DNA of 64,000 bases from an uncultured Thermoleophilia bacterium (GTDB lineage Bacteria; Actinomycetota; Thermoleophilia; UBA2241). Where the stretch lies: contig CAVUGS010000013.1 of assembly GCA_963741075.1 (NCBI GenBank), forward strand, positions 67,084 to 131,083. Reading direction: 5' to 3'. The translations under genes and the position numbers were made by a program. Of this stretch, positions 28,556 through 37,130 are shown in pieces (the first letter of the stretch is position 1; each line of letters opens with the position of its first letter). Under the pieces are notes generated by a model. That model worked only from the letters and a program-made list of their open reading frames with translations. It did not search any database and was not told where the DNA came from.

Positions 28556-29273
28556 ATGACGGTGCGGCTCCTGGGGCTCAACTGCAGCCCTCGCGACAAC
28601 AGCAACAGCGGCATCATGCTCGAGACGGCCTTCAGCGGCTGGACGCGACCTATCCCGGCGAGGCGAGTCACGAGGTCATCAATCTGCGCGACCTGGACAT
28701 CGAGCCGTGCAAGGCGTGCGACGTCTGCGGCAAGACCAAGGATGGGCGCTTCATCCCCTGCGTGCGGGCCGACGAGGACGACGTCCAGGGCATGCTCGAC
28801 GCCATGGTCGCGGCGGACGGCATCCTCGTGGCCACGCCCGTGTACTTCGGGCTGCCCTCGGACCTGTTCTCCAAGTTCATCATGCGCACGCGTCCGCTGC
28901 GCCACCAGGACTTCAAGCTCGCCAACAAGCCGGTGGGCGTGCTGGCCATTGCGGGGCGCCGCTCAGGCGGCGCAGAGACGGCCATCCTGGCCACCTGGCT
29001 GCCCTTCGTGCGCAACGGCTGCCTCGTGGTCGGCAACGGTGACGGCACCTGCCAGTTCGGCGCCTACGGCTGGGCCGGCCCTCGCGGCCACATCCTCACG
29101 GACGAGTGGGGTCTCGAGCAGTCCTTCCAGACGGCCGAACGCGTCTTCACGCTCGCCGTCTCATCAAGGCGGGGGTCGAGGCCACCGGCTTCGAGAATCC
29201 CATGAGGTTCTCGTACTCGCGGGGACGCGGTCCTGACGGCGGCGTGCCTCTATCTGGAGAGGCACACACATGA
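28556..29273 (+). CDS. Flavodoxin-like NAD(P)H-dependent FMN reductase / iron-sulfur flavoprotein-like protein (frameshifted)
   Basis: LLGLNCSPRDNSNS, EPCKACDVC, ILVATPVYFGLPS, VLAIAGRRSGGAETA. One candidate C-terminal frame ends in an ATGA overlap with the carrier-protein start. Confidence 0.65.
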
Positions 29274-29560
29274 CCGACGCCGAGACCATCCTGGAATTCA
29301 TCCGCGACGAGGCCGATCTGGAAGAGGACGAGGTCGACGCGGACACGTCGCTGTTCCGCGACCAGCTGCTCGACTCCATGAACCTCACGGCGCTCATCGC
29401 GTTTCTGGAAGAGACCTTCTCCATCAGGGTGAAGCCCATGGACATCGTCTTCGAGAACCTCGACACGGTGAACCACATGCTCGCCTACGTCGCGAGCAAG
29501 AAGGCGGCGATGCCTGAGCCGGTCCCGGCCCGACGTCGTGGGGTCCGGCCCCCCGGGTGA
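29270..29560 (+). CDS. Acyl/aminoacyl carrier protein (DltC-like)
   Basis: Intact 96 aa and acidic. LFRDQLLDSMNLTALIAFLEETF has a Ser in the DSM context typical of a phosphopantetheine attachment site. Confidence 0.8.
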   Translation: MTDAETILEFIRDEADLEEDEVDADTSLFRDQLLDSMNLTALIAFLEETFSIRVKPMDIVFENLDTVNHMLAYVASKKAAMPEPVPARRRGVRPPG

Positions 29561-29721
29561 TGAAGCGCCGGGCCCCGAGGGGCGAGCCGCGCGCGCGCTG
29601 GTTCTACTATGGCCTCGGCCTGAGCCTGCAGACGTTCCTCTGGTTCCTGCTGTTTCTGGCCATCGTCGTCGCCGTGCTCGTGGGCGGCCAGCTCACCGAG
29701 TTCCGGTACGTCGGCTTCTGA
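29560..29721 (+). CDS. 53-aa single-TM micro-protein ending FRYVGF (DltX-like FxYxxF C-terminal motif); not in the ORF track
   Basis: My translation is MKRRAPRGEPRARWFYYGLGLSLQTFLWFLLFLAIVVAVLVGGQLTEFRYVGF*. The ATG overlaps the carrier-protein stop (GTGATGA). Confidence 0.6.
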   Translation: MKRRAPRGEPRARWFYYGLGLSLQTFLWFLLFLAIVVAVLVGGQLTEFRYVGF

Positions 29722-29760
29722 CGTACCGGCACGCCTGGCACCGATGCCTGCCGAGCGCTC

Positions 29761-34778: not shown

Positions 34779-34796
34779 GCGGAGGAGCTGGCACCC

Positions 34797-35849
34797 GTGA
34801 CGCCACAGACACTCGACGCGTGGCGTTCGTTCCGCCGCGGCTTCCGCCAGCGGAGCCCGCTCGTGCTGCTGCCGCGCTGGCCCTCTGTCCTCGCCGTCTG
34901 CCCCGGCGTGCAGCAGTCCTGCTCGTGACGGCGACATCGTCCGGCGTCTTCCGAGGGCCGCTTGCTGCGGTTCCACAACGACGACTACGTCCACCTCGGG
35001 TATCTGATGGCGAGCTCAAAAAGCTCCGCCGCGGGGCACCGTGATCTACCTCTTCGGCGGCTCGGCGCCATGGAGAGCTTCGTCGACGAGGCGTCTCTGG
35101 CGGCGGAGGTCGAGCCGTGACGCCGGCGCAGCCCGTCCGCGTGATCAGCCTGGCCGGCCACGCCCAGAGCATGGGCGGGACGCTGGTGCTGATCGACAAC
35201 CTGCCGTCGGGGGCCAGGGCCTGCTCGCCGTCGGCCTCGCGCCGGCGCGCTTCACCGCGTCGCCCCAGGACGACGGCGGCCTGCTGATCGGCACCCGTAC
35301 CTGCTGTCCAGCCGGCGCCTGGGGCGCTCCTCAGCGAGACGCCGGCTCGTCTGGCCGGCGCCGGACGTGCTCTTCCCGGGCGCCATCGAGTACGGCGTCA
35401 CCTACCTCGAGGAGCGGATGCGCATCCGGCTGCCGGCGTTCTCCGACATCGGCTACAGCCGGCACTACACCATCGACGGCCGCTCTACCCGACCTCGCAG
35501 AAGCTCAGTGGGCGCGCCGCGACTCGCAGCTGACGTCACCCGCTACGCCTAGTACGCGGACTACAACTTCACGGTGCTCGAAGAACTGGTCGCGCTGGCC
35601 CGGGAGCGGGGCTTCGACGTGGCCTTCTACGACCAGCCGCTCAACACGCACATCATCGGCCCGACCTGGCGCGGTCTGGTGCCCGCCTACCGCCGCCGCG
35701 CGGAGGCCCTCGCCGCCCGGCTCGACGTGCCGTACCTGCGCGTCGGCCAGCTGGTGCGGCTGGACAACGAGGACTTCCTCGACGACTACCACCTGGTCGT
35801 GCGCGGGCGGCTCAAGTGGCAGCCGGTGCTCTCGGAGGAGCTCGGTTGA
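34797..35849 (+). CDS. TM-anchored DltD/SGNH-like transferase, paralogue B (several frames)
   Basis: GGAGGAG RBS then GTG. FRQRSPLVLL, IYLFGGSA.MESF, VRVISLAGHAQSMGGTLVLIDNLP, LLAVGLAPARFT, ERGFDVAFYDQPLN, FLDDYHLVVRGRLKWQ. Confidence 0.65.
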
Positions 35850-35988
35850 CCGCTGCGCTCCCGACCAGGCCGCAGCGTCAGGACGGACGGCCGCCGGGCA
35901 GTGCCGCAGACGTGGGGCGACTCCGGCCGCGTCGACGTTGGCCGCGACGGTCGCGTTGTGCGACGATTCGTGCTGGTGGGTCCTGCAG

Positions 35989-37130
35989 GTGACACGAACT
36001 GAGAGCGGCGACTGGCGACGCCGAGTCGTTCCGTCGCGGGTTTGGGGAGCGCAATCCTCTGGTGCTGGCGGTTGGCCGGCGGCCTGGTGCTGCTCGCGGT
36101 GCTTCTGGCGCCCCGGCTCGTCAGCGACGGCGGCGTTCGCCGTCTGTCGACGAAGGCCGGCTGCTGCGCACGCCGCACGACGACTTCATCCACGTCACGC
36201 ACCGGGCGGAGCAGCTGCGCCGAGCGCCCGAGCTCCGCGACGACGGTCTACCTGCTCGGCGGCTCGGGCACCATGGAGTGCTTCAAGAGCGAGTCGTCGC
36301 TGGCCGCCGCCATCGCGACGCGTCGCGACCAGCCGGTGCAGGTGGTGAGCCTCGCCGCCGCCCAGGAGACCATGGCGATGTCGCTGGTCCTCGTTGACAA
36401 CCTGCCGCCGCAACAGGCGACGGTAGCCATCGGCCTGTCGCCCGTCCGGCTCATCGGCTCCCCCGAGCGGGATGCCCGCATCCTCTGGGGCGACCCTCTG
36501 CTGCTCAAGAGCCCGCATCTGGCCGAGCTCGCGCGCACGTACTACGCGGGGACCAGACGGCGGACCGGTCTCGTCTCAGGCTTCTTCGCCTACGTGGGCT
36601 CCTATCTCCACACCCGCGTGGACAGCGGAGCGACGCCGGGCAGCCGTGTCCGCTATCAGACTCACTACTGGAACGACGGGGATGCGGCCCGGTCGCCGAT
36701 GGCCAAGCGCCTCGATGTGCTCACCGTGCTCGACGACCACAAGGAAGCGCTACCGCCGAGTACGGCGACGTACAACCTGGCTGTGCTGGAGGAGATCCTG
36801 CGCGTATGCGAGGAGCGCGGGTACCGCGCCGTGCTCTTCGACCAGCCGCTCAACGTGGCGGCCGGCGGGCCCGACTGGGCCGGCGTGGTGCCGGCGTACC
36901 GCGCCGAGGCGCGGCGCTGTCGCGGCGCTACGGCGTGTCCCTACCTGCACATCGAGCGGCGCGTCGCGCTGCGCGACGACGACTTCGCCGACCTGTACCA
37001 CCTGATGGCGCCGGCGCGCCCCAGTGGCAGCCGGAGATGGCCCGGGAGCTCGCCGCCACGCTGGCCGCGCCGGAGGGGCCCGGGGCGCGCTCGTCGCTGT
37101 TGCGCGCCGGGCGCCCGCATCGCCGTGACG
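35989..37130 (+). CDS. TM-anchored DltD/SGNH-like transferase, paralogue C (several frames; both ends approximate)
   Basis: FGERNPLVLAVG, VYLLGGSGTMECF, VQVVSLAAAQETMAMSLVLVDNLP, VAIGLSPVRLIGS, ERGYRAVLFDQPLN, FADLYHLM...KWQPEMAREL. Confidence 0.6.

Follow-up and report, generated by a model that had tools for sequence, protein, structure and literature searches.

The question raised by this locus is which acyl-transfer system is encoded by a run of genes at positions 28556-37130 (+ strand) of a 64,000-nucleotide stretch of DNA from an uncultured Thermoleophilia bacterium (the window, whose coordinates are used throughout). The genes encode an FMN_red-family flavoprotein, a carrier protein (C), a microprotein (X), an adenylating ligase of the ANL superfamily (A), an MBOAT (B) and several SGNH-type paralogues (D). 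An earlier note, made from the letters of the sequence, had read them as a non-canonical Dlt-type, carrier-dependent MBOAT shuttle. In our view these genes are likely to specify an acyl relay across the membrane that is of the Dlt type and depends on a carrier, but is not an orthologue of the D-alanylation system. The earlier reading is borne out by a DltB-like MBOAT, a terminal FxYxxF motif on X and a structural model of a D protein whose nearest matches are DltD. What was observed directly is which parts are present, how far they are conserved, which motifs they carry and what they are most closely related to; the steps of the relay are drawn by analogy with the Dlt mechanism (PMC12148441).

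Components of the locus

Motifs and open reading frames (ORFs) were read from the ORF list, Pfam scans and translations. Every motif and family that the earlier note had named was found in its place, and the following features were obtained.

28556-29236, + strand: flavoprotein of the FMN_red family carrying a CX2CX2CX10C motif, in pieces over three frames (Pfam, tblastn)
29270-29560, + strand: carrier protein with the phosphopantetheine-attachment motif LLDSM, window motif LLDSMNLTALIAFLEETF (Pfam PP-binding, 1.7e-9)
29557-29721, + strand: DltX-like microprotein X of 54 codons, one transmembrane helix, C-terminal LTEFRYVGF (ORF list, tblastn)
29761-31260, + strand: ANL adenylating ligase with at least three frameshifts (Pfam AMP-binding and AMP-binding_C; tblastn pieces in three frames)
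31261-31750, + strand: first upstream SGNH paralogue, N-terminal ~160 codons with the transmembrane anchor and GGS block (tblastn, translation THGGSSAREALVSG)
31751-32386, strand not applicable: poly-T/poly-A artefact block (raw sequence, GC 0-0.19)
32387-33500, + strand: noisy SGNH paralogue body with an ELP block III and DFHDLSHL (tblastn, translation)
33510-~34760, + strand: DltB-like MBOAT with the catalytic His of WHISLS, split over three frames (Pfam MBOAT, tblastn)
34806-~35900, + strand: SGNH paralogue 3' of the MBOAT (IYLFGGSA, DFLDDYHL), with several frameshifts (tblastn, translation)
36023-~37130, + strand: D3-type SGNH paralogue (VYLLGGSGTMECF, DQPLN, DDFADLYHL), the best preserved of the window (homology, translation)

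The profile searches that had been proposed for each protein returned FMN_red (28762-29205), PP-binding (29270-29560), AMP-binding and AMP-binding_C (as pieces within 29538-31290) and MBOAT (as pieces within 33687-35044), and no significant Pfam or NCBIfam family for the window paralogues or the micro-ORF. By tblastn, the similarity of X to its orthologues starts at 29542, ahead of the ORF start at 29557.

The MBOAT had LTA_dltB as its sole NCBIfam match (6e-48, positions 7-376 of 380, 164 bits against an equivalog cut-off of 375), and its sole PDB relatives by sequence were the DltB entries 6BUG and 8JEM (3e-32). In 36 orthologues of ~415-416 aa the His of WHISLS (His282) was invariant, and FxYxxF was found within the last 30 residues of none (0/36). 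By these sequence features the MBOAT is assigned to the DltB architecture and not to that of PatA or AlgI, and it falls short of orthology to DltB.

The motif missing from the MBOAT was found on X. All 33 distinct X orthologues (54-72 aa) consisted of a single hydrophobic helix followed by LTEFRYV(G/R)F at the extreme C-terminus, with the Tyr at position -4. Since DltX of B. thuringiensis ends in FIYNEF (PMC5541007), the Tyr of X is placed exactly as in DltX, at -4 of a terminal FxYxxF. This is the acyl-shuttle motif, on the Tyr of which D-Ala travels from DltB to DltD (PMC12148441). The X family comprised 466 clusters at 90% identity, all annotated as 'hypothetical', and the 120 matches listed for a search with the X profile were all close orthologues. 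X gave no match to the Pfam or NCBIfam models of DltX, so its place beside DltX is given by architecture and not by sequence.

The earlier note had asked whether the paralogues possess an SGNH/DltD-like fold. For motif analysis 101 distinct D sequences were aligned, with the counts given out of 102. The GGS Ser92 was present in 101/102, Asp333 and His336 of the DxxH motif in 102/102 and the block III Asn287 in 95/102, and all D paralogues therefore look catalytically competent as judged from these residues. In the window the GGS and DxxH motifs pair as THGGSSAREAL with DFHDLSHL, IYLFGGSA with DFLDDYHL, and VYLLGGSGTMECF with DDFADLYHL. Sub-threshold Pfam matches to Lipase_GDSL_2 were obtained in 5/5 intact paralogues tested, one of which also matched DUF1574. 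An AlphaFold 2 model of the D3 orthologue P0007 (pLDDT 76.6, pTM 0.74) contained an N-terminal transmembrane helix and an alpha/beta domain. When it was searched against the PDB with Foldseek, the top matches were all DltD (6PFX, 6O93, 3BMA, 7DXM; E 2e-5 to 7e-4, probability 1.0; the best five at E 2e-5 to 2e-4), followed by generic SGNH proteins (TesA, GDSL lipases) and PatB with target-normalised TM-scores of 0.5-0.66. With this predicted fold and the Ser/Asn/Asp-x-x-His residues, the D paralogues can be placed in the SGNH/GDSL superfamily, and the model makes DltD their nearest structural relative, though a distant one. The basic N-terminus of P0007 ahead of its transmembrane helix is consistent with an outward-facing catalytic domain. 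An exhaustive search with the D profile retrieved 789 representatives (E<=1e-3) among 1.84 billion and gave no tie to a named family, the shorter relatives being weakly GDSL-like.

Two side observations bear on the D family. One Thermoleophilia metagenome-assembled genome (MAG) carries five SGNH paralogues round its MBOAT in the order D-B-D-D-D-D, with GGS and DxxH intact in all of them (L039, 3899-11065). An EQPLG variant, in which the block III Asn is replaced by Gly, occurs as stand-alone genes (L042, 3865-4944; L044, 8990-11032; L046, 9875-11065), with no carrier, ligase, MBOAT or other partner genes nearby in these three loci. In L043 and L045 this variant is a neighbour of the core cluster and is transcribed divergently from it.

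The carrier of the window was 86% identical to that of L002, a related locus with an intact operon in MAG MFD05684.bin.1.282. Orthologues are 82 aa long, and an indel has probably extended the 3' end of the window ORF. The Ser of LLDSM (Ser36) was invariant in 35 sequences. Against the two DltC equivalog models the carrier scored 31.3 bits (cut-off 68) and 20.9 bits (cut-off 52.35), generic acyl carrier protein (ACP) models scoring equally and all below cut-off. Its best NCBIfam matches were generic ACPs and an ornithine-lipid ACP.

The ligase orthologue is 511 aa long, and the ANL motifs A3 (TSGTTGxPKG), A5 (YGxTE), A7 (GD), A8 (GRxDDxIKxxG) and A10 (PxxxxGK) were conserved in 33 orthologues, which identifies it by sequence as a member of the ANL superfamily. 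A comparison of its pocket with that of DltA had been suggested, and the residues of DltA turned out not to be kept. The best matches in NCBIfam and the PDB were fatty-acyl or acyl-CoA ligases (NF004837, 1e-75; FadD13, 7e-45; also FadD5 and MenE). DltA was reached in the PDB at no better than 5e-26, and the DltA models lay outside the best 25 NCBIfam matches. The ligase was aligned with the DltA sequences 3E7W and 3DHV, which were verified through the PDB search, using B. cereus numbering. At the place of Asp197 the ligase has Thr215, which did not vary among 33 sequences, and at that of Cys269 it has Ser; the pocket neighbourhood NTPPYFTSGICHF was invariant in 33 orthologues. In DltA structures Asp197 anchors the amino group of D-Ala, and Cys269 is likewise a D-Ala-binding residue. 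In the adenylation (A) domains of non-ribosomal peptide synthetases (NRPS), an Asp anchors the substrate amino group as in DltA. By these residues the ligase is judged not to be a D-alanine ligase. Because it is without the amino-anchoring Asp of DltA and NRPS A-domains, the acyl substrate is probably neither D-alanine nor any other alpha-amino acid. The substrate had been left open in the earlier note, and this narrows it.

The flavoprotein matched FMN_red (Pfam, 2.3e-22), and the window copy was 85% identical to the L002 protein (L002 3888-4571) over three frames (tblastn). Its Cys cluster, CX2CX2CX10C, was 97% conserved and is reminiscent of that of iron-sulfur flavoproteins (Isf). Isf binds a 4Fe-4S cluster through a compact N-terminal CX2CX2CX4-7C motif, and the spacing here is longer. 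The protein may thus be a candidate iron-sulfur flavoprotein. The nearest structure was the gut-bacterial flavone (FMN) ene-reductase FLR (7D38, E 5.5e-7). A reaction was not assigned from it, the similarity being too weak and confined to the N-terminal domain.

Conservation of the gene set and quality of the sequence

A search with the best-preserved paralogue of the window found 142 homologues of ~377 aa, all unannotated and from metagenomes, the closest being 76% identical. In a scan of species-representative genomes 45 loci were obtained, nearly all from MAGs of uncultured Thermoleophilia/Actinomycetota, many of them long-read soil MAGs. In line with the actinobacterial synteny noted for the host, the relatives are Actinomycetota of the class Thermoleophilia. 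The earlier note had also called for a survey of the co-occurrence of the genes. Of the 42 loci with enough flanking sequence, 39 held one or more D genes together with those for C, X, A, B and the flavoprotein, the D copies numbering one to five per locus, so that ligase and carrier do co-occur with the MBOAT. Because the same gene set is kept in 39 of these 42 informative loci, the arrangement is far above chance. The flavoprotein had been proposed as an extra component, and its gene still adjoins the carrier gene even in the rearranged loci L041, L043 and L045.

The intact operon of L002 encodes, in order, FMN_red (227 aa), carrier (82 aa), X (65 aa), ligase (511 aa), D1 (356 aa), D2 (355 aa), MBOAT (415 aa), D3 (376 aa) and an esterase (345 aa; PF00756, with a twin-arginine translocation (TAT) signal). 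Its genes overlap by 4-8 nt, which suggests translational coupling. The esterase closes the operon in many relatives (L002, 11128-12165; L003, 11158-12144). It is missing from the window and from L001, the closest relative of the window locus, where an extra SGNH paralogue takes the position after the MBOAT.

The flanks of the relatives are those of the window: LPG_synthase_TM, a methyltransferase, peptidase M42, a PQQ propeller and GAF-GGDEF. The operon flanks of the relatives held no polyketide synthase (PKS), NRPS, lipid-synthesis, polysaccharide or teichoic-acid genes. A tRNA-Leu(CAA) gene (28323-28410, + strand; ARAGORN), which lies outside the system, is a conserved upstream neighbour. 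The earlier note was right to place it directly upstream, and its meaning is corrected here: since the tRNA stands upstream of the flavoprotein gene in 8/9 related loci checked, it is part of a conserved chromosomal synteny and not an island junction. An integration site for an island at the tRNA was ruled out, tRNA and flanks being syntenic across the clade.

Three further observations concern the neighbourhood and the host labels. A conserved protein of ~228-274 aa lies between the methyltransferase and the tRNA (window 27014-27838, + strand; L002 2315-3001; 44% identity between the two), and it had no Pfam match. The LPG_synthase_TM (MprF flippase-like) gene, which is also conserved, lies upstream at a distance of a few genes and is read from the other strand (window 24098-26584, - strand; L002 1-470; L003 48-992); in Firmicutes, MprF and Dlt act together in surface-charge modification. 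The loci L017, L023, L026 and L042 come from bins labelled Deltaproteobacteria, Armatimonadota or Acidobacteria, with 42-78% identity to Thermoleophilia genes, and one X protein (P0350) is labelled Krumholzibacteria. Since identity is high and most of the contigs are short, these labels are more probably due to contamination of the bins than to horizontal transfer.

Reading the window itself requires its errors to be separated from its biology. Every locus gene longer than ~0.6 kb mapped by tblastn onto an intact orthologue in two or three reading frames. Unrelated flanking genes (GGDEF, methyltransferase, PQQ-propeller, VWA) were likewise split over three frames against intact orthologues, for example at 26024-26614, 38657-40093, 40116-41684 and 41863-43064, and in a frame plot of GC content at third codon positions (GC3) the frame changed every few hundred bases over the whole 64 kb. 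Because unrelated flanks and the whole window show the same splitting, the frameshifts are assembly or base-calling errors and not locus-specific pseudogenisation, which was ruled out on this evidence. Such a pattern would be expected of a metagenome assembly, probably from long reads, that was poorly polished.

The largest artefact sits among the D genes. The 636 nt at 31751-32386 begin with ~535 T, which are followed by ~79 A and by short runs of either base. On both sides the window and L001 are collinear (27003-31750 with L001 1002-5766; 32387-38995 with L001 6399-12927), and L001 holds ~633 nt of real sequence at this place (31750 = 5766; 32387 = 6399). Because of this collinearity the block is read as replacing ~633 nt of real sequence, which by comparison with L001 would be the C-terminal two-thirds of one paralogue and the beginning of the next. 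The paralogue start at 31261-31750, which was 54-55% identical to L002 D1/D2 (tblastn), is truncated by the block. Downstream of the MBOAT, the paralogue at 34806-35900 was 37% identical to L002 D3 (tblastn) and collinear with L001 8738-9940.

The segment after the block, 32387-32880, was 83-86% identical to 31305-31750. In its cleanly framed part the substitutions by codon position were 3, 2 and 15 (15/20 at position 3), and 25/32 inserted bases were A; raised A content was confined to ~32400-33450. The third-position bias therefore marks real coding divergence, and the A-biased insertions are noise. A reading of 32387-32880 as purely an error-ridden duplicate of 31305-31750 was revised on the L001 collinearity and the third-position divergence. 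In our reading ~1.7 kb (31751-~33450) is a failed or unpolished stretch that hides part of the locus, 32387-33500 is probably the second upstream paralogue, and the true gene order is probably D-D-B-D-D, as in L001. The order C-X-A-D-B-D-D with three paralogues, as given by the earlier note, is accordingly uncertain in order and number, since the artefact lies inside the locus. The copies flanking the block share ~93% identity when insertions are ignored, well above the ~70% for D1/D2 of relatives. Gene conversion or a strain-chimeric join duplicating one gene could alternatively account for these near-identical copies.

A proposed relay and its alternatives

By analogy with Dlt, the ANL ligase would adenylate a carboxylic acid and load it as a thioester onto the phosphopantetheine arm of the carrier. 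The DltB-like MBOAT, using its conserved His, would then pass the acyl group from the carrier across the membrane to the Tyr of the X motif FRYVGF at the outer face. The membrane-anchored, outward-facing SGNH paralogues would receive it on their catalytic Ser and hand it to extracytoplasmic acceptors. The one to five D paralogues with intact triads suggest, speculatively, that several acceptors or positions are served. Likewise speculative is the role of the Cys-motif flavoprotein, which probably acts in the cytoplasm to provide the acyl group or to modify it by redox chemistry. In many relatives the TAT-exported esterase may trim, edit or reverse the modification, and its export is consistent with a chemistry at the outer face.

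Several points weigh against this proposal. What is proposed for the acyl substrate, for the acceptor and for the orientation of X in the membrane is deduced from sequence, and for X the positive-inside rule is ambiguous. X may have converged on the form of DltX, as it bears no sequence similarity to the DltX models. The DltD matches of the P0007 model are low (global TM-score 0.37-0.41, root-mean-square deviation 11-13 A); DltD was not matched by the D proteins in Pfam or NCBIfam even at E<=10, and a D-family profile run against PDB sequences gave no DltD or other relevant match. Even with Asp197 lost, the substrate could still be an amino acid if the enzyme bound it differently, and the linkage of the flavoprotein could partly reflect clade-wide synteny. 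Every gene of the window is, in addition, interrupted as assembled.

These points have to be set against what other explanations would demand. One such explanation is a genuine, highly diverged Dlt system by which, as in Firmicutes, D-Ala would reach an anionic polymer of the envelope. In its favour, all five functional roles of Dlt are filled, with DltB as the nearest MBOAT, DltD as the nearest fold, a carrier that shares the LLDS(M/F) context and has weak DltC matches, and an MprF-like LPG_synthase_TM gene nearby. The ligase, however, lies nearer to FadD13 (7e-45) than to DltA (5e-26, and outside the best 25 NCBIfam matches), its Asp197 and Cys269 are swapped for invariant Thr and Ser, no component reaches a Dlt equivalog cut-off, and the conserved flavoprotein and multiple SGNH paralogues are without Dlt counterparts; we therefore hold D-alanylation to be unlikely. 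The same fatty-acyl-CoA-ligase-like enzyme, together with a carrier whose best matches are generic ACPs and the ornithine-lipid ACP, could instead belong with the flavoprotein to a cytoplasmic cassette for lipid or natural-product loading, the MBOAT acylating a membrane lipid directly (as in wax-ester synthesis or lipid remodelling) with no Tyr relay. Eukaryotic MBOATs do acylate lipids and proteins. Against such a cassette stand a microprotein with an invariant terminal FxYxxF, apparently coupled in translation between the carrier and ligase genes, and the SGNH proteins, which are anchored in the membrane, keep their triads and are always co-encoded in one to five copies; with a specifically DltB-like MBOAT, a TAT-exported esterase in many relatives and flanks free of PKS, NRPS and lipid-synthesis genes, it seems to us quite improbable.

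That the locus of this particular genome is a decayed, non-functional remnant made of true pseudogenes would fit the frameshifts in all genes above ~0.6 kb and the gene broken by the 636-nt homopolymer block. Yet the frameshift density is equal in unrelated flanks and over the whole window, substitutions against relatives are still biased to the third position, the homopolymer block equals the length of real sequence in the collinear L001, the A-biased insertions are typical of read noise, and intact orthologues exist in dozens of related genomes, which makes decay very improbable. A Dlt-type acyl relay distinct from D-alanylation is the reading that we retain. A wider claim can be derived from it, namely that uncultured soil Thermoleophilia have a second, so far undescribed class of carrier-dependent MBOAT relay, with its own Tyr-shuttle microprotein, a non-amino-acid acyl group possibly tailored by the flavoprotein, and one to five SGNH transferases serving several different acceptors of the envelope. 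It would amount to a new chemistry of envelope modification in Actinomycetota, and we give it an even chance of being right.

If the proposal is true, the acyl-Tyr shuttle mechanism would serve more than D-Ala and acetyl groups, Thermoleophilia would be seen to have an envelope modification not known before, and a testable function would be available for three unannotated families, namely X with 466 clusters, D with ~800 representatives and the flavoprotein linked to them. The locus is noteworthy to specialists in envelope acylation, and it is directly testable.

Comparison with known systems

A literature search found no Dlt-like system described for Actinobacteria or Thermoleophilia, the primary paper on the DltX mechanism being outside its reach. 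Among known pathways, a carrier protein and a DltX microprotein are treated as unique to Dlt, other MBOAT-SGNH pathways being without both (PMC12148441). In PatA/PatB, AlgI/AlgJ/AlgX and WssH-type systems the acyl group likewise passes from the MBOAT His through an acyl-Tyr in FxYxxF and an SGNH Ser to an extracytoplasmic polymer (PMC12148441), and PatB is among the fold matches of the D model. In those systems, however, FxYxxF lies on two extra C-terminal transmembrane helices of the MBOAT, the donor is acyl-CoA, and carrier, ligase and microprotein are absent, whereas the present locus has it on a microprotein of its own, none of 36 MBOATs bearing it, and carrier and ligase are co-encoded. 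On these sequence features the locus is not assigned to the PatA/AlgI type.

AlmEFG of Vibrio cholerae offers another case outside Firmicutes, in which a DltA-like ligase and a DltC-like carrier feed an envelope modification, the substrate being glycine. AlmG is a lipid A acyltransferase and not an MBOAT, and AlmEFG is without a microprotein or SGNH component; the locus described here has MBOAT, microprotein and SGNH proteins. Dlt-like operons are also found in Gram-negative bacteria, the dra locus of Bordetella being an example. These operons resemble the present locus in having Dlt-type machinery outside Firmicutes and a non-teichoic, poorly defined acceptor. They differ in carrying recognisable dltA/B/C/D genes that move D-Ala, whereas the ligase pocket here is not of the D-Ala type and the SGNH protein and microprotein come from unnamed families. 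A few such dlt operons are recorded in Dickeya and Pectobacterium, and 805/809 DltX-bearing species are Firmicutes (PMC5541007), while the host here is an uncultured Thermoleophilia bacterium.

The closest comparison is with Dlt of Firmicutes (DltX-A-B-C-D), the product of which is teichoic acid bearing D-alanyl esters. Both have an adenylating ligase with a small phosphopantetheinyl carrier as acyl donor, a ~415-aa DltB-type MBOAT with a catalytic His and no fused shuttle motif, a separate single-helix microprotein with a Tyr at -4 of a C-terminal FxYxxF (PMC12148441, PMC5541007), and a membrane-anchored SGNH transferase, whose nearest structures here are DltD. Unlike in Dlt, the ligase is without the Asp197 and Cys269 of DltA, X, D and C fall outside the Dlt family models, the genes run flavoprotein-C-X-A-D(n)-B-D(n) and not X-A-B-C-D, one to five SGNH paralogues replace a single one, and a Cys-motif FMN_red flavoprotein and often a TAT esterase are linked. 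The relay principle is known from these systems; what is new are the type of ligase, the families to which the SGNH proteins and the microprotein belong, the linkage of a flavoprotein, the expansion of the paralogues and the host clade. The same relay architecture appears here coupled to a different loading enzyme, a multi-copy new SGNH family and a redox flavoprotein, in a widespread, uncultured class of soil actinobacteria.

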